Source of the DNA: Halomicrobium mukohataei DSM 12286
Lineage (GTDB): Archaea; Halobacteriota; Halobacteria; Halobacteriales; Haloarculaceae
Length of the DNA stretch: 32,000 nt
Direction: 5' to 3'
Assembly (NCBI RefSeq): GCF_000023965.1
Contig: NC_013202.1
Location: 630,001 to 662,000 of the forward strand
Shown here piece after piece: positions 1,536 through 29,877 of the stretch. Positions within the stretch are counted from its first letter, which is position 1. Every line of letters starts with the position of its first letter. The notes below the pieces were generated by a model. It did not search any database. It saw only the letters and a list, made by a program, of their open reading frames with translations, and was not told the origin of the DNA. The position numbers and the translations under genes are program-made.

Positions 1536-3959
1536 TCATCGTTCGACACTGACGGTCCGAGATTCCCTGACCGGCGGGATCGGCAACTCGGGGAAGGTGA
1601 CCTCGATCGCGAAGGTGAGTTCGTCGGCGTCACCGCCGAACGCGGCGACCGGGACCGTCGCCTGACCGAGGTACGACGGTTTGGTGGTCATCTCGTGGCC
1701 GTTGACAGTCACGCGGATGCCGGCGCGGGCGCTGCCGGCGACCGAGCGGACCGTCACCTCGTGGAGTTCGCGCTCCCCGGCCGCGATCTGGTCCGGGAAC
1801 TCGCCCCACTCGACGACGACGTTTGGCAGGTCGGTCGCGTTGTCGCGGACGCGCTCGGCGACGCTCTCGGAGAGCCCGGCCGCGACGAGTCCGGCGACGC
1901 CAGCGTCGACGACATCCGCAGGGGTGCGAAAGCCCTCGGCGGCGAGCGTGCGCGCCCGCCCGGGGCCGACCCCGTCGATCGCCGTGAGGCCCGCCGCGTC
2001 CGCGCTGACGCCGTTCTCGACGCGCGCCTCGACGCGGCGTGCGAGGTTCGCGCCGCGAGCGCCGGCAAAGCGGTCGAGGAAGGCCCGCAGCGCGGCGAGC
2101 ATGCGGAGCGCGTTCTGCTTGATCACCCAGGCGTCGCTCTGGAGCTCTGACGGCGTCGTTCCGGACATCGAGGAGCGGAGGATCGCGAGCACCTTCCGCT
2201 GGCCGGCGGTCAGCTCCTCGCCGCGAGAGCCGATCACCGCCGCGACGGCGTCTTCCTCGTCGCTGCGGGCGCTGACGCTGTCGAACTCCGTCGCACCGGC
2301 GACCGTCGAGAGGATCGCGTCCTCGTCGAAGCCGTCCGGGTCGGTCGCCGCCCGGTCGGCGCAGTCCTTGAACCGACGGGCCGTCGCCAGCCGGAGGTAG
2401 AACTTCGAGGCCAGTCGACCGAGCGGGGTCCCCTCGACCGAGAGGTCGTCCATCTCGACGAAGCCGTCGGCGACGAGGTCTCCGAGCGTGTCCGAGACCC
2501 GCTCGCGGAGGTCGGTGCCGGCGGTGTACCGCTCGGGAGCGCGCTGGGCGCGCCGGTAGTAGAACGTGGTTTCGAGCCAGTCCATCACGTCCTCGATGTC
2601 GCCCAGCGTCCCCAGCGCGATCTCGGCGTTGAGGTGTGCGTCGAGGTCGTCGGCGAGTCTGGACTCGATCTCCTTGCCCTCCCGCAGGAGAGTGCGGTAC
2701 TTGTCGGCGTCGGCCCGATCACAGACGATCCAGGCGTAGCCCATGTCGTCGTACCCCGGCCGACCCGCGCGCCCGAGCATCTGGAGCACGTCCAGCGGAC
2801 TCATGTCGACCTCGCCCTCCAGGGGGTCGTGGAGCTTCGTGTCTCGAATGACGACACAGCGGGCCGGGAGGTTCACGCCCCAGGCGAGCGTCGAGGTCGA
2901 GAACAGCAGCTGGATGAGCCCCCGTTTGAACCACTCCTCGACGCGGTCCTTGTCCTCGCGCGAGAGACCGGCGTGGTGGAAGCCGACGCCGTCCAGCACC
3001 GACTGCCGGAGCGTGTCGTTGTCGAGTTCGGCGGCTTCGGTGTGGAAATCGTACTCCCCGCGAGCCCCCATTGGCACGTCGCGCTCGACGATCTCGTCGC
3101 GGGCCTTCTTCGCGGCCTGGACGGTGTCCTGTCGAGAGGAGACGAACACGAGGGCCTGGCCCTCCTCGCGAATGTGTGGCTCGGCCAGATCCAGCGCCCG
3201 GTAGAGCCGCCGGTACTTGTCGGCGAAGGCGTTCTCGCCGTGGCTGTAGGTCTTCACGTCCGCGTTGAGTGGAACGGGTCGGTAGTCGTCGCCGAACTGG
3301 AACGTGGTCGCATCGGGCGCGTCGAGCCACGCCGCCACGTCGTCGACGTTCTCCATCGTCGCCGACAGCGCGACGACGCGGGGATCACACAGTCGACGGA
3401 GCCGCGAGATAGTCACCTCGAGTACCGATCCACGTCGGTCCGAGTCCAGCAGGTGGACCTCGTCGATGATACAGCAGTCGACATCGGTGATAAAGCCGTA
3501 GCGCCGCGAGTCGTGCTTGCGGGTGGCCGAATCGGCCTTCTCGGGGGTCATCACCAGCACGTCGGCCCGCTCGGCGCGTCGGGGGTTGAGGTCGCGCTCG
3601 CCGGTGACGACGTACACGGAATACCCCAGGTCCTCGAAGCGCTCCCACTCGCTCTCTTTCTCGTTCGTCAGCGCTCGCAGCGGGGCCAGAAAGAGCGCGG
3701 TCCCGCCCGCCTGCAGGGTCTTGCAGATCGCGATCTCGGCCAGCGCGGTCTTGCCACTCGCCGTCGGCGCACTGACGACGACGTTGTCGTCGCGATTCAG
3801 GAGCGCCGGGAGCGTCTCCGACTGCATCCGGTTGAACTCCTCGAACGGAAAGGCGTCGGCGAACTCGGGGAGCACGTCCGCGACCGCGACGGCTGGCTCC
3901 CCGTCGGCGCTCGGTGACACGTCAGATGGCGGGGGCCGTGTGCTCAAAGGCGTTTCCAT
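1536..3959 (-). CDS. Ski2-like superfamily-2 DEAD/DEAH-box helicase (807 aa)
   Basis: Motifs seen: Walker A SAPTASGKT, DEVH box IIDEVHLL, SAT, and motif VI QMLGRAGRPG. There is a long helical C-terminal region. It is distinct from the Hel308 ortholog at 25871. Confidence 0.9.
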   Translation of the reverse strand: METPLSTRPPPSDVSPSADGEPAVAVADVLPEFADAFPFEEFNRMQSETLPALLNRDDNVVVSAPTASGKTALAEIAICKTLQAGGTALFLAPLRALTNEKESEWERFEDLGYSVYVVTGERDLNPRRAERADVLVMTPEKADSATRKHDSRRYGFITDVDCCIIDEVHLLDSDRRGSVLEVTISRLRRLCDPRVVALSATMENVDDVAAWLDAPDATTFQFGDDYRPVPLNADVKTYSHGENAFADKYRRLYRALDLAEPHIREEGQALVFVSSRQDTVQAAKKARDEIVERDVPMGARGEYDFHTEAAELDNDTLRQSVLDGVGFHHAGLSREDKDRVEEWFKRGLIQLLFSTSTLAWGVNLPARCVVIRDTKLHDPLEGEVDMSPLDVLQMLGRAGRPGYDDMGYAWIVCDRADADKYRTLLREGKEIESRLADDLDAHLNAEIALGTLGDIEDVMDWLETTFYYRRAQRAPERYTAGTDLRERVSDTLGDLVADGFVEMDDLSVEGTPLGRLASKFYLRLATARRFKDCADRAATDPDGFDEDAILSTVAGATEFDSVSARSDEEDAVAAVIGSRGEELTAGQRKVLAILRSSMSGTTPSELQSDAWVIKQNALRMLAALRAFLDRFAGARGANLARRVEARVENGVSADAAGLTAIDGVGPGRARTLAAEGFRTPADVVDAGVAGLVAAGLSESVAERVRDNATDLPNVVVEWGEFPDQIAAGERELHEVTVRSVAGSARAGIRVTVNGHEMTTKPSYLGQATVPVAAFGGDADELTFAIEVTFPELPIPPVRESRTVSVER

Positions 3960-5753: not shown

Positions 5754-6869
5754 GTGGTCCCACTGAGCGTCCTCCACCGCGACCCGACAGACCAGGTACA
5801 GGTACTCGACGAGAACGGCGAGGTGCGGGACGGCGCGACGGTTCCCGACCTCGCGGACGAGGAACTCGTCGCGATCTACCGCGAGATGAAGCTGGCTCGT
5901 CACTTCGACCAGCGGGCGGTGAGCCTCCAGCGACAGGGTCGGATGGGGACGTACCCGCCGATGGCCGGCCAGGAGGGCGCACAGGTCGCGAGCGCCCACG
6001 CGCTGTCCGACGGTGACTGGGTGTTTCCGAGCTACCGGGAACACGCCGCGCTGCACGCACACGGGTGGCCACTCGACCAGATCCTCCTGTACTGGATGGG
6101 GTCGGAGGCCGGTAGCGACCCGCCGGACGGCGTCGCCGCGTTCACGCTGGCCGTCCCGATCGCGACGCAGATCCCCCACGCAACGGGCGCGTCGTGGGCC
6201 GCAAAGCTACGGGGGCAAGACGAAGTCCACCTGGCGTACTTCGGCGACGGCGCGACCAGCGAGGGAGACTTCCACGAGGGACTGAACTTCGCTGGCGTGT
6301 TCGACACCCCGACGGTGTTTTTCTGTAACAACAACCAGTGGGCCATCTCGGTCCCCCGAGAGCGCCAGACCGCCAGCGCGACGCTGGCCCAGAAGGCCAG
6401 CGCCTACGGCTTCGAGGGAATCCAGGTCGACGGGATGGACCCGCTGGCCGTCTATCAGGTCACCAGCGAAGCCGTCGAGAAGGCCCGGGACCCGGCCGGC
6501 GAGGACCCGCGCCCGACCATGATCGAGGCGGTCCAGTACCGCTTTGGCGCACACACGACCGCCGACGATCCCTCCGTCTACCGGAGCGACGAGGAAGTCG
6601 AGCGCTGGCGGCGCAAAGATCCGATCCCGCGCATGGAGGCGTTCCTGCGGGATCGCGGACTCCTCGACGACGAGTCCGTCGAGGCCATCGAGTCGTCGAT
6701 CGCCGACGAAGTCGCCGACGCCATCGAGACGGCCGAGAGCTACGAGCGGCCAGCGCCCGAGGAGATGTTCGCACACGTCTACGCCGAGATGCCACAGCGG
6801 CTGCGAGACCAACTCGACTACCTCGAAGCGCTGCGCGAGCGCCACGGCGACGAGGTGTTGCTGGAATGA
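5754..6869 (+). CDS. 2-oxoacid dehydrogenase E1 component, alpha subunit (TPP-dependent)
   Basis: TPP-binding region [21 protein letters not shown]...[14 protein letters not shown] start as in the ORF track. The stop overlaps the E1beta ATG (ATGA). Confidence 0.9.
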
Positions 6870-7849
6870 GCACCGACACGCAGGACCTGACCCTCGTCCA
6901 GTCGGTCCGGGACGGACTCTACGGCGAGATGGACCGCGACGAGGACGTGCTCGTGCTGGGCGAGGACGTGGGCGAGAACGGCGGCGTCTTCCGGGCCACA
7001 CAGGGCCTGATCGAGGAGTTCCCCGACCGCGTGATCGACACGCCGCTGGCCGAGGCCGGCATCGTCGGCACCGCCATCGGAATGGCCGCCCACGGCCTGC
7101 GCCCGGTCCCGGAGATGCAGTTCTCCGGGTTCATGTACCCGGCCTTCGACCAGTTGGTGTCTCACGCCGCGCGACTGCGAACTCGCAGCCGCGGGCGCTT
7201 CACCTGTCCGATGGTCGTCCGCGCGCCCTACGGCGGCGGCATCCGCGCGCCCGAGCACCACTCCGAGTCGAAGGAGGCCTTCTACGCTCACGAACCCGGC
7301 CTGAAGGTCGTCGTCCCCTCGACACCCGCCGACGCCAAGGGGCTGCTCGCGGCGTCGATCCGCGATCCCGACCCCGTCGTCTTCCTCGAACCGAAGCTGA
7401 TCTACCGGGCCTTCCGCGAGCCCGTCGACGCCGAGTCCTACACCGTCCCGCTTGGCGAGGCCGCCGTCCGCCGAGAAGGGTCGGACGTGACCGTCGTGAC
7501 CTGGGGCGCGATGACGCGCCCGACCGTCGAGGCGGCCGAGGAACTCGCGCCGGAGATCGACGCCGAGGTGATCGATCTGCGGACCCTCTCGCCGATGGAC
7601 ACGGACACCGTCGTCGAGAGCTTCAAGCGGACCGGTCGGGCCGTCGTCGTCCACGAGGCCCCCAAGACGGGCGGGCTGGCCGGCGAGGTGGTCGCGACGA
7701 TCCAGGAGGAGGCGCTGCTCTACCAGGAGGCCCCCATCCAGCGCGTGACCGGCTTCGACACGCCGTTCCCGCTGTACGCCCTGGAGGACTACTACCTCCC
7801 CGAATCCGCCCGGATCAAAGACGGTATCACAGACGCCTGTGAGTTCTAA
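6866..7849 (+). CDS. 2-oxoacid dehydrogenase E1 component, beta subunit
   Basis: Starts [18 protein letters not shown]...[18 protein letters not shown]. The ATG at 6866 overlaps the E1alpha stop. The longer ORF-track version (6338) is upstream read-through in this frame. Confidence 0.9.
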
Positions 7850-7852
7850 TTC

Positions 7853-9475
7853 ATGTTCGAGTTCGAACTCCCCGACCTCGGGGAAGGCGTCGCCGAGGGG
7901 GAGATCCTCGCGTGGCACGTCGAGCCGGGCGACCGCGTCGAAGAGGATCAGGTACTCGCGGAGGTAGAGACCGACAAGGCCGCCGTCGACGTGCCCTCGC
8001 CGGTCGCTGGCGTCGTCCGCGAACTGCACTACGAGCCCGGCGATATGGTCGAGACCGGTGCCGTCGTCGTGTCGATCGCGACGGACGAGGCCGACGACGA
8101 GACAGACGACGAGACAGACGAGGAAGCGGCGACGACGGCTGTCACCGACGAGTCGGCGGACAGCGAGCCGTCGGCCACGGGCGGCCGCGTGTTCGCGCCG
8201 CCGAACGTCCGTCGGCTCGCCCGCGAACTGGGCGTCGAGATCACTGCCGTCGACGGCAGCGGTCCGAGCGGCCGGATCACCGAGAGCGACGTGCGAGCGG
8301 CCGGCGAAGACGCGGCGTCCGCGGACGACGCCGAGGTCGAATCCGCCGTCAGCCGTGTCGACGACGGTGACGGCAGCGGCGTGAAGTCGGCCGTCAGACG
8401 GGTCGACGACGGCGACGAGGCCGACGACGAGCCAGTCGTGAACTCGGCCGTTGCCGCTGTCGACAGCGACGCCGAGCGGGACCGCTCGCTCGCGACACCG
8501 GCGACCCGCAAGCTCGCGAGCGACCTCGGGGTCGACATCGATGCCGTCCCGACCGACGAGAGCCGCGACGGCGAGCCCTACGTCGACGAGGCGGCGGTCC
8601 GGGCCTTCGCCGCGTCGGCCGACGAGACCGAGCGAGAGCGAGCCGCTGGGTCCACGGGACGGGCCGGGGAGCCGTCGACCGCGGACGGTGCGAGCGGTGA
8701 AGCCGCGAGCGCCGAGGGCCAACGCCGCGAGCCCTACCAGGGAGTTCGGCGGACGATCGGCCAGCGGATGGCCGAGTCCCGCCGGGAGATCCCACACGCG
8801 ACCCACCACGACCGGGCCGTCGTCGCGGGACTGGTCGACGCCCACGAGCGCCTCGAACCGCTGGCCGAGGAGCGCGGCGTGGACCTGACCTACACCCCGC
8901 TGCTGCTGAAGTGCGTTGCCGCGGCGCTCCGGGAGCATCCGATCCTGAACAGCGAACTCGACGCGGAAGCCGAGGAGATCGTCTACCACGACCGGGTCGA
9001 CCTCGGCGTCGCCGCGGCGACCGACCACGGCCTCGTCGTCCCCGTCGTCGAGCGCGTCGACGAGAAGGGACTGCTGGCCATCGCCCGCGAAGTGAACGAC
9101 CTCGTCGCCCGCGCACGCGACCGCGACCTCGCCCGCGAGGAGATGCAGGGCGGGACCTTCACCGTCACCAACTTCGGCGCGATCGGCGGCGAGTACGCCG
9201 ACCCGATCATCAACGCACCCCAGACGGCGATTCTCGGAACGGGCGCGCTGAAAGAGCGGCCGGTCGCAGAGGACGGGGAGACGCGAGCACAGCGAGGGTC
9301 TCCGAACGGCGAGCGGGGAGCACAGCGACCCGCGAGCGGCGAGGTCGTCGCGAGGGCGACCCTCCCGCTGTCGCTCGCGATCGACCACCGCGTGATCGAC
9401 GGGGCCGACGCTGCCCGCTTCGTCAACACGCTCAAGGAGTACCTCGCCGAGCCCAGTCTGCTGTTGCTGGAGTGA
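7853..9475 (+). CDS. 2-oxoacid dehydrogenase E2 (dihydrolipoamide acyltransferase)
   Basis: Lipoyl domain VETDKAAVDVPSP, subunit-binding domain PNVRRLARELGVEI..GSGPSGRI, and catalytic DHRVIDGA. It carries an unusual 20-aa insertion just before the catalytic His motif. Confidence 0.9.
   Translation: MFEFELPDLGEGVAEGEILAWHVEPGDRVEEDQVLAEVETDKAAVDVPSPVAGVVRELHYEPGDMVETGAVVVSIATDEADDETDDETDEEAATTAVTDESADSEPSATGGRVFAPPNVRRLARELGVEITAVDGSGPSGRITESDVRAAGEDAASADDAEVESAVSRVDDGDGSGVKSAVRRVDDGDEADDEPVVNSAVAAVDSDAERDRSLATPATRKLASDLGVDIDAVPTDESRDGEPYVDEAAVRAFAASADETERERAAGSTGRAGEPSTADGASGEAASAEGQRREPYQGVRRTIGQRMAESRREIPHATHHDRAVVAGLVDAHERLEPLAEERGVDLTYTPLLLKCVAAALREHPILNSELDAEAEEIVYHDRVDLGVAAATDHGLVVPVVERVDEKGLLAIAREVNDLVARARDRDLAREEMQGGTFTVTNFGAIGGEYADPIINAPQTAILGTGALKERPVAEDGETRAQRGSPNGERGAQRPASGEVVARATLPLSLAIDHRVIDGADAARFVNTLKEYLAEPSLLLLE
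8342..8470 (+). repeat. degenerate in-frame tandem repeat in the E2 linker (SAVxRVDDGD units); also GACGACGAGACA x2 at 8093-8116
   Basis: Units start at 8342, 8387 and 8444 and share TCGGCCGTCAGxCGxGTCGACGACGG. This looks like typical acidic linker expansion. Confidence 0.6.
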
Positions 9476-9600
9476 AGACAATTCGATCGGCGGACTCTCT
9501 CAGAGTCGCTGTCTGCTCGCGCGCATTTCGAGTCTTCGAGAGATGGAACCTTCGCAAACGTAGATCTCAAGACGAGATACGACGCATCTCTTCGATATAA

Positions 9601-9780
9601 CATCAACAAGAGTATCGACTTTAGCTGGTAAATAGAGCGACAAATCACTATTTTTTATTATAAATAATTATATGAATATTTTTATTATTTGTCGTATTAC
9701 GTACTGGCAATAGAATAATTGGAAATAGTCTTTAGAGAGCGAGAATAATAGAATATGGGCAGACAGACAAAGAAGTCATC
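9601..9780. other. sharply AT-rich tract (53 G+C in 180 nt by my count, about 29 %) between E2 and the PQQ-repeat gene
   Basis: I counted three 60-nt lines directly. The surrounding genes are visibly above 60 % G+C. Confidence 0.9.
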
Positions 9781-11086
9781 ACAAATACGTATGAGAGAAT
9801 TCGCTACCACCCGCCGTGAGATGATTCACAGCGGGTGCTCGTTGACTGGAGCCCTTCTCGGAACAGAAACTGTATCGTCTGCCCCGGGAGGCGATGAGTG
9901 GCAGGAGTTCGGTTTCGATACAGCTAACAGCGGTAACGGCCGGGAGAACCGAGGGCCGTCTACGGACATCGGAACCAGTTGGTCGTTCCAAACAGACGAC
10001 CAGATCACGTCGTCTCCCGCGGTCGTCGACGGGACCGTCTTCGTCGGCAGTCACGACGGAGCCCTCTACGCATTCGATGAGACAGACGGGACACTCGTTT
10101 GGCAGTTCGAAATGACCGAGCGCGTCCTCTCTTCGCCAGCCGTCGTCGACGGGACTGTCTTCGTCGGTAGCAACGGTCCAGACCGCGCCGTGTACGCCCT
10201 CGATACGGAGACGGGCGACGAGGTGTGGAACTACGAGGCGTCGAACTGGATTACAGCGTCGCCGACGGTGGTCGACGGTCACGTCTACGTCGTCGACGAC
10301 AACCAATGGGTGTACGCAATCGACGCTGCCGACGGATCGGAGCGATGGACCTTCGCCGGGACCGATTCGGTCCAACCACCACTCAAGACTGCCGGCGTGG
10401 CTGTCGCCAACGAGACGGTGTACTTCGGCAGTCGGGACAGCACCGTGTACGCACTCGACGCGAACGATGGAACAGAACGGTGGTCGTCGTCGACCGACGG
10501 TCAGATCGGGTCTCCGCCAGCCGTTGTAGATGGGTCGGTGTACGTGGGCAGCGACGACAATCACGTGTATGCCTTCGACGCCGAAGACGGACGTGAGCGC
10601 TGGCGATACGAAACCGGCTACTGGGTGGAAGCGTCACCTGCCGTCGTCGATGGAACGGTGTACGTCGGCAGCTTCGACGGAACGCTGTACGCCCTCTCGG
10701 CTGCCGACGGAACTGTCGAGTGGACGCGAAACGTCGGTGACGAGCTGGAATCGTCGCCGGCTGTGGTCGATGGCACGGTCTTCGTTGGCTCCGACGACAC
10801 GAAACTCCACGCGATTGACGCCGAGAACGGAACCCATCGCTGGGCGTTCCGAACCGGCGGACGCGTCGAGTCTTCCCCCGCAGTAGTAAACGAACGGGTC
10901 TATGTCGGAAGCAACGACGGAAACGTCTACGCGCTCAGTGGCGATGCACGGTCTGACTCGTCGATACCGGAACTGTCGATACGGAATCTGGGGATCGCTT
11001 CGGCCGCTGGCCTGCTCGGCGTGGGGTACCTCCTGCGTAGTCTAAAAACGGATACCGCTGAGACTGACACCAGCAACAGCGAGTAG
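9755..11086 (+). CDS. PQQ-like (BamB/YVTN-type) eight-bladed beta-propeller repeat protein, probably secreted and membrane-anchored
   Basis: Eight repeats of SSPAVVDGTVFVGSxDGxLYAxDxxDGxxxW. The N-terminus has a twin-arginine-like TTRREMI followed by SGC, a possible Tat lipobox. There is a C-terminal hydrophobic anchor GIASAAGLLGVGYLL. Alternative start at 9791. GC is lower than in the neighbouring genes. Confidence 0.85.
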   Translation: MGRQTKKSSQIRMREFATTRREMIHSGCSLTGALLGTETVSSAPGGDEWQEFGFDTANSGNGRENRGPSTDIGTSWSFQTDDQITSSPAVVDGTVFVGSHDGALYAFDETDGTLVWQFEMTERVLSSPAVVDGTVFVGSNGPDRAVYALDTETGDEVWNYEASNWITASPTVVDGHVYVVDDNQWVYAIDAADGSERWTFAGTDSVQPPLKTAGVAVANETVYFGSRDSTVYALDANDGTERWSSSTDGQIGSPPAVVDGSVYVGSDDNHVYAFDAEDGRERWRYETGYWVEASPAVVDGTVYVGSFDGTLYALSAADGTVEWTRNVGDELESSPAVVDGTVFVGSDDTKLHAIDAENGTHRWAFRTGGRVESSPAVVNERVYVGSNDGNVYALSGDARSDSSIPELSIRNLGIASAAGLLGVGYLLRSLKTDTAETDTSNSE

Positions 11087-11125
11087 ACAGAGATCGACGT
11101 CGTCGAAGCTTGCTGGCTGGACTAA

Positions 11126-11203
11126 TACTACCGGCTGTAAATCTGTCACAGATTTCGCCACCCCGGGGTGGCGAATATCTGAACGAAGTTACAGCCGGCA
11201 GTA
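11126..11203 (+). mobile_element. MITE copy A (78 bp), flanked by TAA/TAA direct repeats at 11123-11125 and 11204-11206
   Basis: The TIRs are TACTACCGGCTGTAA and TTACAGCCGGCAGTA, 14/15 complementary. Internal palindromes are AAATCTGTCACAGATTT and TTCGCCACCCCGGGGTGGCGAA. It is 76/78 identical to the copy at 29459-29536. Confidence 0.85.
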
Positions 11204-11217
11204 TAAATCAAGGGATA

Positions 11218-11401
11218 CCGATCATCAACGTCCGACAAACCGCCATTCTCGGAACGGGCGCGCTGAAAGAGCGGCCGGTCGCAGAGGACGGGGAGACGCG
11301 AGCACAGCGAGGGTCTCCGAACGGCGAGCGGGGACCACAGCGACCCGCGAGCGGCGAAGTCGTCGCGAGGGCGACCCTCCCGCTGTCGCTCGCGATCGAC
11401 C
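11218..11401 (+). pseudogene. 184-bp fragment duplicated from the 3' part of the E2 gene (matches 9203-9386), truncated on both sides
   Basis: Ungapped alignment at offset 2015. There are 7 mismatches in 9216-9229 and then 2 mismatches in 157 nt. It lacks the catalytic DHR motif and the whole N-terminal part of E2. Confidence 0.85.
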
Positions 11402-11514
11402 TCAGCACGACGAGTCAACATGCGCTGTCGGGCGAACTGGCAGTCGAGGACGCCCCGGCACCCGGCGACTGATCGACCCGAAGACATTCCTCGGTGACAC
11501 CCCACGGACCGACA

Positions 11515-12262
<748 letters not shown>

Positions 12263-12276
<14 letters not shown>

Positions 12277-13852
12277 CCTGCGGGACGGCGCGGTGCTTGC
12301 ACGCACCGAACTGCGGGCGCAGGTGCGCCGAATCGCGGGCAACCGCCGCCAGCTGGTCGGCGTCGTCGTCGGACTGCTCTCCTTTGGCCTGTTCTTCCCG
12401 CTGACCTTCCTGTCGCAGGTGCTCACCTTCGCCGAGGGGCTCGCAAGCGGGGCTCCGCCGCTGGCTCGCTTCGGGACGATCCTCGTGAGTGTCCTCACAG
12501 TCGGAGTGTACTTCGGGGCCGCGACGGCGATCAACCAGACCCGCGTGGGGGCGATCGGCCCGCTCGTGCGCACGTCGATCCCGCCGGAGGGGGTCGTCAT
12601 CGGACGATTCGCCAGCGAGACCCTCCAGGCGACGGCCTTCGCCGTCGTTCCGGGGGTCGTCCTGCTGGTCGTGCTGGTGGTCGGCGCTGGGACGCCCCTG
12701 CCCGCACTGCTCGTGCTCGCCGCCAGCCTCCCGCTGCTGGTGGCCGGTCTCGTCGCCGGGCGGACGATCGGCGCGACGGTCCGCTATCTCGGCTTGCTCT
12801 CGCGACTCTCGGCGTGGGGGAAGGCGGTCGTCCTCGTCGTCCTCGCCGGCACCGCCTTCGTCGGACTCCAGACGGCCATCCCGGCGGTGATGGGCGACGA
12901 CGGCGCGCCGTCGGTGTCGGCGCTGCTCCCCGGACAGCCGCTCCAGGCCTACGCCAGCGTCGTCGCCGCACCGCTGGGCGCGACACCGCGACCGCTGGGC
13001 GTGGCAGTGGCCGCGGTGGTGCTGGCCGCGGTTCCGGTCGGGCTGGCGGCGGCGCTGCGCATCGAGAGCGCGCTGCTGTTCGACGACCGCGGCGACCAGT
13101 CGGGCGACCAGCGGACGACGAGCCGATCGGTGCCCCGCGTGCTCGCGGCGACGCCCGCGACGCGCATCGCCTGGCGATACCTCCTGCGGACGCGCCGGAA
13201 TCCGAAGCTCGTCTCGCACCTCTCGATGGTGCTTTTCGGCGCGCTCGCCTTCGCGGGGAGCCTCGTCAGCCAGCCGGAGCTGCTGATGGACCTGGGCCCC
13301 GGGGCCGCCGTCGTCGCCGGGAGCGTCCTCGCGGGCGCGACTTTCTGTCTGAATCCGATGGGCGACGACCGCGAGCAGCTCCCGCTGTTGCTGACGAGCA
13401 CGGCCTCGACGAGACACCTCCTGCGGGGTCGAGTGGTGGGCGGACTGGTCGTCGGCGGGACCGTGGCACTGGGCGTCGGGCTCCCGCTGGGACTGGTGAG
13501 CGATCCACCCCTGCGCGTGCTCGGACGGACGCTCCTGACGCCCGTGGTCCTGCTCGCGGCGGCCGGGACGGCGCTCGGCGTCGGGGCCGTCGTCCCGAAG
13601 TTCGAGCGCAGCGAGTACATGAACGTCGAGCGCGCCCACCCCTCGACGCTCGGGACGCTCACCTACTTCTTCGGGACGCTGGTAGTGGTGGGCATCGGCC
13701 TCGCGCTCGTCTGGCTCTCGGTCGACGGGGGCGGTGGCCCGCTGCTGGTCGGGGCCTGGATCGTCTATCTGGCCGTCCTCGCGGCGACCGGCGTCGGCGG
13801 CTACCGCTACGCCGTCGGGAAGTTCGATCGGCTGACGATAGACGACGTCTAG
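12263..13852 (+). CDS. polytopic membrane protein, putative permease partner of the ABC ATPase
   Basis: 529 aa with many hydrophobic helices. Its start overlaps the ATPase stop. No specific family recognised. Confidence 0.7.
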
Positions 13853-15210
13853 TCGCCGGACGGCCCCGACTCGTCGGTGGCGTCGCCGGGACGGTCGTAG
13901 GCACCCCGAGCGGCGAGTCGGGCGCGCTCGCGGACGATCGCTGGCGTCCGGCACCGACCCGGCTCGCCGGCCACCTGCGGGACGGTACAGTTGTTGCAAC
14001 TGGCACACAGCGCGTCCGCACCGGCGAGCAGGCGCGCGCCGAGTCGCGGCTCGGCGTAGAACGGCCGCCCCATCCCGACCAGATCCGCGGCCGGCGGCCG
14101 GTCGGCCCCACCGAGCAGTCGGTCACAGGTCGCTCGCTCGCGGATCCCGCCCTCGCACAGCACGGGCGCGTCGACCCGTTCACGGACCGCTCGACAGAGG
14201 TCGGCGTTCCAGCCGGGCTCGCGGTCGAACTGTCGGGCCTGCAAGCGGTTGAGGAGCGAAACGGCGCGGGCTCGAAGCGGGCCGCCAAAGGCCGCCGCGT
14301 ACTCCCCTCGCAGGTCCGCTGCCGACCACGCCCGGTCGGGATAGGCCCCACGGACGATGCTCATGTCCCAGAACGTCGACACCGCGACCGGGACCACGGC
14401 GTCGTAGCCCGCCGCGACGAGATCGCTCGCGAGGCCGACGGCGTCGTCGAACGAGAGGTGTCGGCGGACGAAGGCCGGCGCGGCGGTCTCGGCCGGCACC
14501 TTCGTCACCAGCGCCACGTCGTCGGCGTGCTCGCGGACGGCGTCGTGGATCGCTTCGAGGAACCGCCGCCCGCCCGCCGCCGGCTCGCCGGGGTCGGGAC
14601 CGAACTCGTCGTCTCGCCGATTGAAGAGGGGCGAACAGAACTGCTGGAGCAGGCTCATGTTCGCCCCCGAGAGGTGGATGCCGTCGTAGCCGGCGTCGGC
14701 GGCGTACCCCGCAACGCGGCCGAACTGGGCGGCCAGCTCGTACACCTCGCTGGTGTCGAGGACGCGCGGAGAGAGGTCGATCAGCCCCGCGCGGTCGAGG
14801 ACCCGGAGCTGCCACGGCGGACGCGAGACGGCCAGTTGTTCGAGCTGTGGATTCTGGCTGCGGTAGCCGGCGTGCCACACCGCCATGCTGCGCAGCCCGC
14901 CCTGTGCGAGCTGGAGGAAGATCCGGCCGCCGTGGTCGTGGATCGCGCCGGTGAGCCGTTCGAGCCCGGCGACGAACTCGGGGTCGTGGACCCGCGTCAT
15001 GTTCGGCGCGGCACAGCCGCCCTCTCCGGTGACGACCGACGCGCCCTGGAAGACGAGGCCGACGCCCGAGGCGGCGGTCGGTTCGAGTTCGTCGATCAGG
15101 GTCTCGACCGCGCCTTCGCCGTTGCCGGCACACTCCAGCAGCGGCGCACGATACAGTCTGTTGGGCACGGTGACGCCGCCGATGTCGACCGGCTCGTCGA
15201 GGCGCGCCAT
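13849..15210 (-). CDS. NADH:flavin oxidoreductase, Old Yellow Enzyme / 2,4-dienoyl-CoA reductase-like TIM-barrel
   Basis: Begins MARLDEPVDIGGVTVPNRLYRAPL. There is a C-terminal Cys cluster CASCNNC...C. The internal ATG at 15210 is preferred over the ORF-track start at 15318, whose N-terminus is Arg/Pro-rich. Confidence 0.8.
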   Translation of the reverse strand: MARLDEPVDIGGVTVPNRLYRAPLLECAGNGEGAVETLIDELEPTAASGVGLVFQGASVVTGEGGCAAPNMTRVHDPEFVAGLERLTGAIHDHGGRIFLQLAQGGLRSMAVWHAGYRSQNPQLEQLAVSRPPWQLRVLDRAGLIDLSPRVLDTSEVYELAAQFGRVAGYAADAGYDGIHLSGANMSLLQQFCSPLFNRRDDEFGPDPGEPAAGGRRFLEAIHDAVREHADDVALVTKVPAETAAPAFVRRHLSFDDAVGLASDLVAAGYDAVVPVAVSTFWDMSIVRGAYPDRAWSAADLRGEYAAAFGGPLRARAVSLLNRLQARQFDREPGWNADLCRAVRERVDAPVLCEGGIRERATCDRLLGGADRPPAADLVGMGRPFYAEPRLGARLLAGADALCASCNNCTVPQVAGEPGRCRTPAIVRERARLAARGAYDRPGDATDESGPSGD

Positions 15211-15352
15211 CGTCCGGTCGTCGGACCGAACGATCGTAAGTGTGCGGGTCGTTGGCAGTCGTCCCGGAAGCGGTCGGAGCCGTCGGGAGGGCCACGCGCG
15301 GCCGAACCAGCTACTCATTTAGTCCCCGGGATTCATGGGGTCAACAAGAACG

Positions 15353-28926: not shown

Positions 28927-29877
28927 ATGATGTACTTCGAGGGAGCCGGACTCTTGATCGGTGCGATCGCACTCGGGGCGATCCACGGCATCGAGCCGGG
29001 ACACGGCTGGCCCGTGGCCGCCTCCTACGCCCTGGACCAGACGAACAAGTGGGCGTACGGCTTCGCCGCGAGCCTGATCCTCGGCGTCGGCCACCTCGTC
29101 AGCAGCATCGCGATGGTCGGCGCGTTCTTCTACGCCAAGGAGTATTTCAGCCTCACGCAGGTCAACGAGCCGATAACGGTGGTCGGCGGCCTCCAGATTG
29201 GCGGCCCCGTCAGTCTCGTGGCCGGCGTCCTGCTGATCGCGCTCGGGCTCCGAGAGTACCTGTCGGGCCACACGCACGGCACCAGTACCGGCCACGACCA
29301 CGGTCACACACACGGCACGGACGACGGCCACGGGGGGCATCACCACACGGGCACCGACGATCACGGGCACGGAGACGGCAGTCACGAGCACCACAGTGAA
29401 GCCGACGAGCACGCCCAGTCGCGCGAGCGAGCGGACCGCAGCCTCGTCGATCGACTGATACTACCGGCTGTAAATCTGTCACGGATTTCGCCACCCTGGG
29501 GTGGCGAATATCTGAACGAAGTTACAGCCGGCAGTATGAAGACGGTGGTGCCGTTCGTCGGCGGCGGGCACGCGCACGGAGAGATGGACACCGACCGTGG
29601 CCTCCTGGGAATCGCGTGGTTTGCGTTCGTCCTGGGGTTCGCACACGAAGAGGAGTTCGAGATCATCGCACTCTGTGCCGGTTCGGACGCGTGTCTCGAA
29701 CTCATGGGTGCGTACGCGCTGACGGTCGTCGTCGGCATCGTCGGGCTGACGATGCTGTTGATCGCGGGCTACGAGCGCTGTGAGGAGCGAGTCGAGCAGT
29801 ACACGCCGTATCTCCCCGTGTTCTCTGCACTGGTCCTCGTCGTCATGGGGATCGGATTCGTCACCGGCATCTTCTGA
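28927..29877 (+). CDS. NicO/RcnA-like nickel/cobalt transporter with His-rich loop, carrying an in-frame MITE insertion
   Basis: Family motif HGIEPGHGWP. The His-rich loop is GHTHGTSTGHDHGHTHGTDDGHGGHHHTGTDDHGHGDGSHEHH, followed by a second membrane half. A TATAA box at 28894-28898 favours ATG 28927; a TTG at 28918 is the alternative. The reading frame stays open through the MITE. Confidence 0.7.
   Translation: MMYFEGAGLLIGAIALGAIHGIEPGHGWPVAASYALDQTNKWAYGFAASLILGVGHLVSSIAMVGAFFYAKEYFSLTQVNEPITVVGGLQIGGPVSLVAGVLLIALGLREYLSGHTHGTSTGHDHGHTHGTDDGHGGHHHTGTDDHGHGDGSHEHHSEADEHAQSRERADRSLVDRLILPAVNLSRISPPWGGEYLNEVTAGSMKTVVPFVGGGHAHGEMDTDRGLLGIAWFAFVLGFAHEEEFEIIALCAGSDACLELMGAYALTVVVGIVGLTMLLIAGYERCEERVEQYTPYLPVFSALVLVVMGIGFVTGIF
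29459..29536 (+). mobile_element. MITE copy B (78 bp), flanked by TGA/TGA direct repeats at 29456-29458 and 29537-29539
   Basis: The TIRs and internal hairpins are the same as in copy A. It has 2 substitutions relative to copy A. It lies inside the NicO-like ORF. Confidence 0.9.

Follow-up and report, generated by a model that had tools for sequence, protein, structure and literature searches.

How did a silent piece of a central-metabolism gene come to lie 2 kb downstream of the intact gene, and why does its likeness to that gene change so abruptly along its length? The question is raised by a 32,000-nucleotide stretch of the Halomicrobium mukohataei DSM 12286 genome (the window, whose coordinates are used throughout), in which the live gene for E2, the dihydrolipoamide acyltransferase, is followed by a 184-bp repeat of part of its own coding sequence next to a miniature inverted-repeat transposable element (MITE). 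The original prediction took the repeat for the remnant of a diverged E2 paralog that had carried an in-frame MITE and had recently exchanged a gene conversion tract with the live gene. We compared the locus with that of Halomicrobium katesii (KB905378.1, L082) and with other loci, which are labelled here by L-numbers. The account that we favour, and to which as a whole we give about an even chance of being right, is that the repeat is a dead remnant of a rearrangement and that the live gene was overwritten in part by DNA from a related lineage. The features on which this turns are the following.

7853-9475, plus strand: live E2 gene (540 aa), third gene of its operon, identified by its open reading frame (ORF), Pfam and orthologues.
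9203-9386, plus strand: repeat copy 1, comprising E2 codons 451-511 and the first base of the His512 codon.
11218-11401, plus strand: repeat copy 2, the E2 fragment, a pseudogene with no start, no catalytic His and a conserved Pro changed to Arg.
9216-9229, plus strand: diverged patch of the live gene, GCA CCC CAG ACG GCG, identical to L083 and L089.
11231-11244: the fragment's patch, GTC CGA CAA ACC GCC.
8947-9229, plus strand: L083/L089-like tract of the live gene, whose right end coincides with the mosaic boundary.

The two copies, 9203-9386 and 11218-11401, align without gaps at an offset of 2015, and the same pair was also found by a repeat search (family D3). The fragment is 184 nt long and has 95% identity to E2 codons 451-511. 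Mismatches are found at 9216, 9217, 9219, 9220, 9223, 9226, 9229, 9320 and 9343, which is exactly the mosaic pattern first described, with seven in 9216-9229 and two in the next 157 nt. They are clustered (7 of 27 positions against 2 of 157, Fisher p = 2e-5; 7 of 14 against 2 of 155, p = 1.5e-7). We found no E2 homology to the left of 11218 or to the right of 11401. The left end does lie 11 nt after the right TAA of the MITE (11204-11206), as had been reported. The right end, which had been placed one codon before the DHR motif, lies inside that motif and covers the Asp codon (9383-9385) and the first base of the His codon.

The fragment has the properties of a pseudogene, since its homology to the parent is clear, both of its ends are truncated and it has no start of its own. 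It spans only positions 160-204 of the 232 in the Pfam 2-oxoacid_dh profile (PF00198) and does not contain a complete catalytic domain. Where E2 reads AID-HRVIDG the fragment reads AID-LSTT, and the DHRxxDG motif with its catalytic His is not retained. The PIIN-x-P-[QE] motif is likewise broken, the fragment having PIINVRQ with an Arg in place of a Pro that is found in every orthologue examined. The earlier view of the duplicate as a non-functional E2 remnant without the catalytic His agrees with these observations. That the segment is dead and without function is one component of the favoured explanation.

We found the same arrangement in other sequences. The structure is the same in a complete genome (CP045142.1, GCA_009217585.1) and in an independent draft assembly, RZNE01000005.1, where 6363 nt match at 100%. 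H. katesii has the same order of E2, PQQ-like gene, fragment and ATP-binding cassette (ABC) genes at 97-98% identity, and species-level differences are scattered through both the fragment and the islet of inserted DNA that separates it from E2. An assembly error, in the form of a collapsed or chimeric contig, had been named as the finding that would overturn the case. We found no point in its support, and the identical structure in the complete and draft genomes, together with an H. katesii locus whose divergence is spread along the whole interval, excludes it to the extent that we rate its probability as practically nil. In a four-way comparison all seven patch differences and the difference at 9343 were fragment-specific in both species, which are about 3% diverged. 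Because these differences are fixed in both species, the mosaic is older than their split, and the exchange cannot have been recent in the sense first proposed.

The patch differences are those of an allele. Five of the seven fall at third codon positions, and four of the seven (in GTC, ACC and GCC) are the states of the real L107 and L115 E2 genes, which read GTC CCN CAG ACC GCC. The fragment's patch differs from L083 and L089 at 7 of 14 positions. At 15% divergence the chance of two or fewer differences in 157 nt is 3e-9. Since alleles as diverged as this cannot match over the next 157 nt by chance, one copy must be recombinant at 9229/9230, which upholds the claim that the mosaic identity needs a recombination breakpoint there.

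The live gene was scored alone, without the fragment, at sites where L083 and L107 differ. We found that L083-like and L107-like informative sites stand at 35:3 within 8947-9229 and at 38:37 outside it (permutation p = 0.002). When L089 was substituted for L083 the best block was 8964-9164 (p = 0.005), which places the right edge between 9164 and 9229. The divergence of live E2 from L083 is 17% to the left of the block, 5.7% inside it and 13% in 9230-9475, including 11% in 9387-9475 beyond the repeat, and its divergence from L107 is steady at 13-18% along the gene. The mosaic most likely arose in the live gene and not in the fragment, and by these sequence affinities the fragment probably preserves an older allele while recombination with another lineage overwrote the live gene. 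Of the predicted gene conversion, the sharp change of identity stands, but the need for conversion does not: the breakpoint is not specific to the pair of copies, since the live gene alone shifts in affinity at about 9164-9229, and the patch matches other lineages at four of its seven differences. Conversion between the copies is thus a possible but unnecessary assumption.

The right end of the fragment is joined to a different gene, and three features describe this junction.

11394-11401, plus strand: 8-nt microhomology GATCGACC at the E2/MscS junction (E2 counterpart 9379-9386).
11402-11472, plus strand: tail of a gene for an MscS mechanosensitive channel, its last 24 codons and stop, identified by tblastn, the conserved tail motif and Pfam.
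11473-11514, plus strand: conserved region upstream of the ABC genes, kept in every relative and at which all deletions stop.

Positions 11395-11469 of the window match residues 263-287 of the L084 MscS protein with 80% identity over the last 25 residues (tblastn), and the tail motif IDLSTTSQHALSGELAV is conserved as the C-terminal end of MscS proteins in haloarchaea. An intact MscS gene is found in L084 and L118 between E2 and the same ABC transporter, in the order E2, small ORF, MscS, ABC. Its identity is backed by Pfam, with both channel domains (PF00924 and PF21082) in intact L118 and L084; the channel domains are not present in the window, where only the last 24 codons are left. At the joint E2 reads GCG ATC GAC CAC and intact MscS reads GGG ATC GAC CTC, with GATCGACC in the same codon phase in both. 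The wider context is GGGATCGACCTCAGT in the intact L118 gene and GCGATCGACCACCGC in E2, and a further shared 9-mer, CGCTGTCGC, lies just upstream of the 8-nt microhomology. Set side by side, GCGATCGACCACC in E2, GGGATCGACCTCAG in L118 MscS and GCGATCGACCTCAG in the fragment are as expected of a microhomology junction, and both of its partners are thereby identified. Because the phase of GATCGACC is shared by both genes, the frame stays open to the native MscS stop, and the in-frame MscS junction accounts for the 3' half of the chimeric ORF that runs through the fragment. What had been read as the stop of a paralog is in fact the point at which a microhomology joins the fragment in frame to what is left of a deleted MscS gene.

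Relatives differ at this position. In L083, L089, L107 and L112 E2 is followed directly by the ABC genes, L115 carries a Pel9A-like gene and a methyltransferase gene downstream of E2, and every variant resumes at the same conserved sequence upstream of the ABC genes. Judged from these arrangements, the position downstream of E2 is a variable spot in the clade. A metagenome scan with an 18-mer from the conserved ABC upstream region returned 25 loci, of which only L089 and L107 were relatives. No remains of the MscS body or of the E2-MscS intergenic region were found in the islet. The L084 MscS gene itself has an in-frame TGA (3034-3039) where orthologues have Trp (RF*N against RFW), and its protein call ends there; this is either a pseudogene or a sequencing error.

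To the left of the fragment lie the MITE and the start of the chimeric ORF.

11126-11203, no strand assigned: MITE of 78 bp with 15-bp perfect terminal inverted repeats TACTACCGGCTGTAA, found by the repeat search (I13).
11123-11125 and 11204-11206: TAA target duplication of the MITE.
11110-11472, plus strand: ORF of 120 codons, probably fortuitous, from the MITE through the fragment to the MscS tail.

The window has another copy of the MITE at 29459-29536, flanked by a TGA duplication, and a further one fills L083 621-699, whose counterpart in the window, 773-775, is empty. The element has the terminal inverted repeats, target duplication, multiple copies and empty site in a relative that are expected of a MITE, and because a filled and empty pair exists between relatives it is mobile. 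In its 78 bp, its 15-bp termini, its 3-bp T(A/G)A duplication, its several copies and its filled/empty pair it resembles the non-autonomous, insertion-sequence-derived MITEs of archaea. We found no description of this 78-bp family for Halomicrobium in the literature searched, where one Haloquadratum paper (PMC3119063) reportedly mentions both MITEs and Halomicrobium. Two Haloarcula plasmids (NZ_CP010530.1 and NC_015944.1) carry copies at about 80% identity, under a coding sequence annotated as a CPBP protease.

The MITE sits 11 nt upstream of the fragment in non-E2 sequence. It has its own 3-bp duplication and other copies, and there is no E2 homology to its left; it is an independent insertion, and the idea of a paralog with an in-frame MITE is not supported. 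Every MITE copy encodes 'GGEY', and the likeness of this stretch to E2 is therefore coincidental. The ORF at 11110-11472 exists and reads as it had been quoted, but since the MITE is a separate insertion in non-E2 sequence, we read the run from MITE into fragment as fortuitous. Between the window and H. katesii the ORF differs at two synonymous and three non-synonymous codons, against 8:2 for the neighbouring ABC ATPase; these numbers are too small for a test, and the change looks neutral.

It could be argued that a function resides in the ORF, or in the fragment's RNA or DNA, be it as a small protein, as part of an ABC leader or as the substrate of a programmed recombination that switches E2 off by a 2015-bp deletion. 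The ORF is indeed open in both species, the annotations of H. katesii and of one assembly list it as a gene, and 157 near-identical bases should suffice for homologous recombination. Set against this are the two synonymous and three non-synonymous differences, the Arg in place of the PIIN-x-P Pro, the lack of the catalytic His, a start codon (TTG) just upstream of a mobile element, and a 3' end that is open only through the codon phase that the microhomology shares in both parents. There is no Rfam match in 9000-12000, the deletion variant is seen in no assembly, and the deletion would be irreversible. We regard a function as most improbable.

Between E2 and the MITE lies the rest of the islet.

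9476-9754, no strand assigned: AT-rich spacer with a GC fraction of 0.37, the start of the islet, absent from L083, L089, L107 and L112.
9755-11086, plus strand: PQQ-like beta-propeller gene, 443 aa, GC 0.61, the cargo of the islet (Pfam PQQ_2, E = 3e-74).

The PQQ-like gene contains 120-nt repeat families and is otherwise found at this locus in H. katesii only. A search for homologues of its protein turned up no orthologue beyond these genomes, all other matches being distant, repeat-rich relatives with 54% identity at most, and the spacer had no match in the phage collection or the plasmid collection. In 9476-11217 the beta-propeller gene is the sole gene, with no integrase or recombinase, no att-like core and no phage match, and there is no tRNA in the window.

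From these observations we infer the order of events, the making of the 184-bp copy and which copy is the recombinant. In the favoured account an ancestral order E1alpha-E1beta-E2-MscS-ABC would have been rearranged in the ancestor that the window's Halomicrobium shares with H. katesii. A 1.74-kb segment of lower GC, made up of the AT-rich spacer and the PQQ-like gene, would have arrived after E2 while nearly all of MscS was lost, and a copy of E2 codons 451-511 would have been left at the junction. The right end of this copy would have been joined in frame to the last 24 MscS codons by illegitimate recombination at GATCGACC, and the 78-bp MITE would have inserted later, 11 nt upstream of the fragment. 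Once the duplicate existed, about 8947-9229 of live E2 would have been replaced by an L083-like allele through homologous recombination with a related lineage. The last 27 nt of this tract fall within the range of the fragment, which would keep the older allele GTC CCA CAA ACC GCC there, its Pro having later mutated to Arg. The copy itself may have come from a tandem duplication of 9203-11217, after which a deletion at a microhomology took away everything from the His codon of the second copy through MscS, from a templated patch made during break repair, or from a homology-anchored import of foreign DNA.

Several points weigh against this account. We found no intermediate, either an islet with intact MscS or a tandem duplication, and the left junction at 11217|11218 has no identified partner. 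The block found with L089 ends at 9164 and not at 9229, so the coincidence of the boundaries is only approximate, and stronger constraint in the most conserved catalytic part could explain some of the low divergence from L083, though divergence from L107 is not lower there. Positions 9219, 9220 and 9223 are private to the fragment and denser than the private changes in the other 157 nt, which fits a later homogenisation. At 9253, 9354 and 9356 the window's E2 shares its states with both fragments and the H. katesii E2 has the outgroup state, and 9320 is swapped between the species. Together these four sites point to extra exchange beyond the model, possibly between the copies after speciation. 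For concerted evolution, in which copies within a genome would be more alike than orthologous copies between genomes, the counts over 9230-9386 point both ways: the window's E2 differs from its fragment at 2 positions and the H. katesii E2 from its fragment at 9, with 6 differences between the two E2 genes and 3 between the two fragments.

A first alternative is ectopic conversion, in which the fragment would stem from a diverged E2 allele or paralog (10-20% different) whose tract 9230-9386 was homogenised before the species split; in a variant of this the transfer ran from fragment to gene, and the live gene received fragment sequence, possibly including the loop insertion described below. 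The sharp boundary at 9229/9230 and the improbable match beyond it speak for conversion, as do three private changes in the 27-nt patch against one or two in the other 157 nt, which suggests that the 157 nt were refreshed. L083 and L089, the nearest relatives without the islet, lack the loop insertion, L107 and L084 have it although they are more distant, and at 9253, 9354 and 9356 the window's E2 carries fragment states. However, the raised divergence from L083 runs past the repeat into 9387-9475, unlike a tract confined to the repeat, and the live gene changes affinity near 9229 without reference to the fragment. A tract that reached the last homologous base, 9386, would have no homologous flank there for resolution, and 9343, which stands amid the putatively converted sites, is copy-specific in both species. 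We hold conversion to be unlikely, at about half the probability of the favoured account.

An import in one step, anchored on E2 homology, would derive the fragment from a donor. Here homology-facilitated illegitimate recombination, or a Campbell-type integration of circular or concatemeric foreign DNA, would have brought in a donor E2 3' part with the islet, through a left crossover at about 9230 and a right join at the MscS microhomology, so that the live gene would be native up to 9229 and donor DNA from 9230. The composition of the islet is foreign (GC 0.37 in the spacer and 0.61 in the PQQ-like gene against 0.70 in the neighbours), the live gene is L083-like, and in that sense native-like, up to 9229 and less so from 9230 to its stop, and the fragment's patch is of a non-native allele type. 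The right junction does lie at a microhomology, and the site downstream of E2 varies among relatives, which have MscS, the Pel9A-like and methyltransferase genes, or nothing. But such an import needs a donor in which E2 9203 was already joined to the right end of the islet, as in a circle or concatemer, and merely shifts the duplication into that donor. Neither an integrase nor a tRNA nor an att-like core lies in the interval, the search for a donor was fruitless (the PQQ-like gene being without a close orthologue and the spacer without a match), and to the left of 8947 the live gene is again not L083-like, which makes the native-like part a bounded tract. On balance such an import seems distinctly improbable to us. 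Import of the whole operon was also considered and dropped, as the divergence profile against L083 over the syntenic region has no large foreign block around the operon.

The favoured account places the fragment among known phenomena. Gene remnants are found at junctions made by microhomology-mediated illegitimate recombination, and microhomology-mediated end joining has been reported in Haloferax volcanii. Like such remnants, the fragment is a truncated copy without start or catalytic residue, with an 8-nt shared junction, a lost neighbour (MscS) and neutral-looking change; unlike them it duplicates a gene still intact 2 kb upstream and is not the sole copy. The nearest textbook picture is 3'-end replacement by e14 or phage 21 in the icd gene of Escherichia coli, where the element supplies a replacement 3' end and the old 3' end of the host gene stays as a pseudo-fragment. 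Here too inserted DNA lies between direct repeats made up of the 3' part of a gene of central metabolism, the upstream copy is live and the downstream one dead, and the copies differ mainly at synonymous sites. Two defining features are nevertheless missing: there is no integrase or att core, and the native allele is not in the downstream copy, since it is the live gene whose patch matches relatives without the islet. The downstream copy also stops short of the end of the gene and runs on into the tail of another.

Two further comparisons bear on the alternatives. Homology-facilitated illegitimate recombination of foreign DNA has been described in Acinetobacter and Streptococcus pneumoniae, and the locus resembles it in a possible E2 homology anchor and in a microhomology join with recipient loss (MscS) on the other side; that process, however, normally deletes rather than duplicates recipient DNA, and no donor was identified here. 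Pseudogenes serve as templates for conversion from CYP21A1P to CYP21A2, in chicken immunoglobulin V pseudogenes and in pilS and vlsE cassettes. The locus shares with these a silent partial copy beside a live gene, with fragment states at E2 sites 9253, 9354 and 9356, but it has one cassette only and no sign of repeated or programmed use, and the incongruent sites are few and can alternatively be explained by import into the H. katesii gene.

The repeat includes a loop insertion that only some E2 genes have.

9277-9303, plus strand: 6-bp hairpin (GGAGAC, 15 nt, GTCTCC) at the start of the loop insertion.
9278-9340 roughly, and 11292-11355 in the fragment together with the hairpin: 21-codon loop insertion of two 11-codon repeats, in the E2 beta-hairpin before DHR.

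The fragment does carry the E2 insertion, as had been noted, though its size is 21 codons and not 20 relative to L083, the closest insertion-free relative. Comparable insertions are found in the E2 genes of L084 (about 1870-1935), L107 (about 668-735), L116, L117 and L003, with three repeats in L116, and a perfect DNA hairpin opens the insertion in every lineage that has it. Among type-1 insertions, compensatory double substitutions that alter the protein affect two of the six pairs in the stem (GGAGAC/GTCTCC, GGAGGC/GCCTCC, CGAGAC/GTCTCG). Haloarcula E2 has a different insertion at the same spot with hairpins of 8-11 bp, and presence or absence is sporadic among close relatives. RNA folding of the region gave weak z-scores (-2.0 to +0.5), Rfam had no match across 9000-12000, and apart from orthologues the insertion DNA was found nowhere else in the window or the fetched loci. 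The insertion may have arisen by quasi-palindrome mutation, or it may be an in-frame element that is palindromic. One could further suppose that the silent fragment served as a donor cassette, that templated conversion wrote the hairpin-bearing insertion, and later the unusual Arg-Ala pair at 9353-9358, into the live catalytic domain, and that the insertion is itself a small palindromic element which recombination spreads among haloarchaeal E2 genes, but we think this very improbable.

The remaining genes of the locus are these.

5754-6869: E1alpha gene, first gene of the E1alpha-E1beta-E2 operon.
Ending at 7849: E1beta gene, second gene of the operon.
11515-12276: ABC ATPase gene, downstream of the E2 fragment.
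12263-13852: ABC permease gene, downstream of the ABC ATPase gene.

The order in the window is E1alpha, E1beta, E2, AT-rich spacer, PQQ-like gene, MITE, E2 fragment, ABC ATPase and ABC permease. Live E2 has the Pfam domains Biotin_lipoyl, E3_binding and 2-oxoacid_dh (E = 5e-82), and its orthologues were found across the Haloarculaceae. Among the best 120 E2 matches, which did not cover the complete chromosome, the only Halomicrobium entries were the window's protein, that of H. katesii and a 55%-identical H. zhouii protein, and a second close E2 paralog in the genome is unlikely. Matches in the plasmid collection were limited to PQQ paralogues (about 69%) and copies of the MITE; no E2-like sequence was among them, and hence no plasmid-borne paralog.

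Other observations concern E2 and its surroundings. The divergence of E2 from each relative shifts strongly along the gene, as in the three L083 values given above, which suggests that E2 is a patchwork of recombination tracts from different lineages. The E2 linker (8324-8458 and 8078-8130) contains 45-nt and 12-nt tandem repeats that code for acidic stretches, and linker length is highly variable among orthologues, whose totals range from 493 to 615 aa. In L084, L112 and L118 the gene for E3, the dihydrolipoamide dehydrogenase, follows both ABC genes, which places the ABC pair inside an E1-E2...E3 cluster; the E3 gene is absent downstream of the ABC genes in the window (13849 onward), H. katesii and L083. 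At about 13936-15293 the window has an Oxidored_FMN gene of the old-yellow-enzyme type (13849-15210, minus strand). Both H. katesii and L083 lack it at this position, and it constitutes a second strain-specific insertion, a few kilobases further downstream.

Gene remnants at the junctions of rearrangements are of a kind already known, and the locus reveals no new mechanism. For annotation, the 120-codon ORF, which some assemblies list as a gene, ought to be recorded as a pseudogene. For the organism, it is a sound inference from the two direct repeats that the 2015-bp interval could be deleted by homologous recombination; the 157 near-identical bases are a latent deletion substrate, and the deletion would inactivate E2. 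Despite this potential the repeat structure has persisted since before the split of the two species. For the history of the locus, a small dead fragment allows the order E2-MscS-ABC, the loss of MscS, the gain of the PQQ islet and a probable imported tract in the live gene to be reconstructed.

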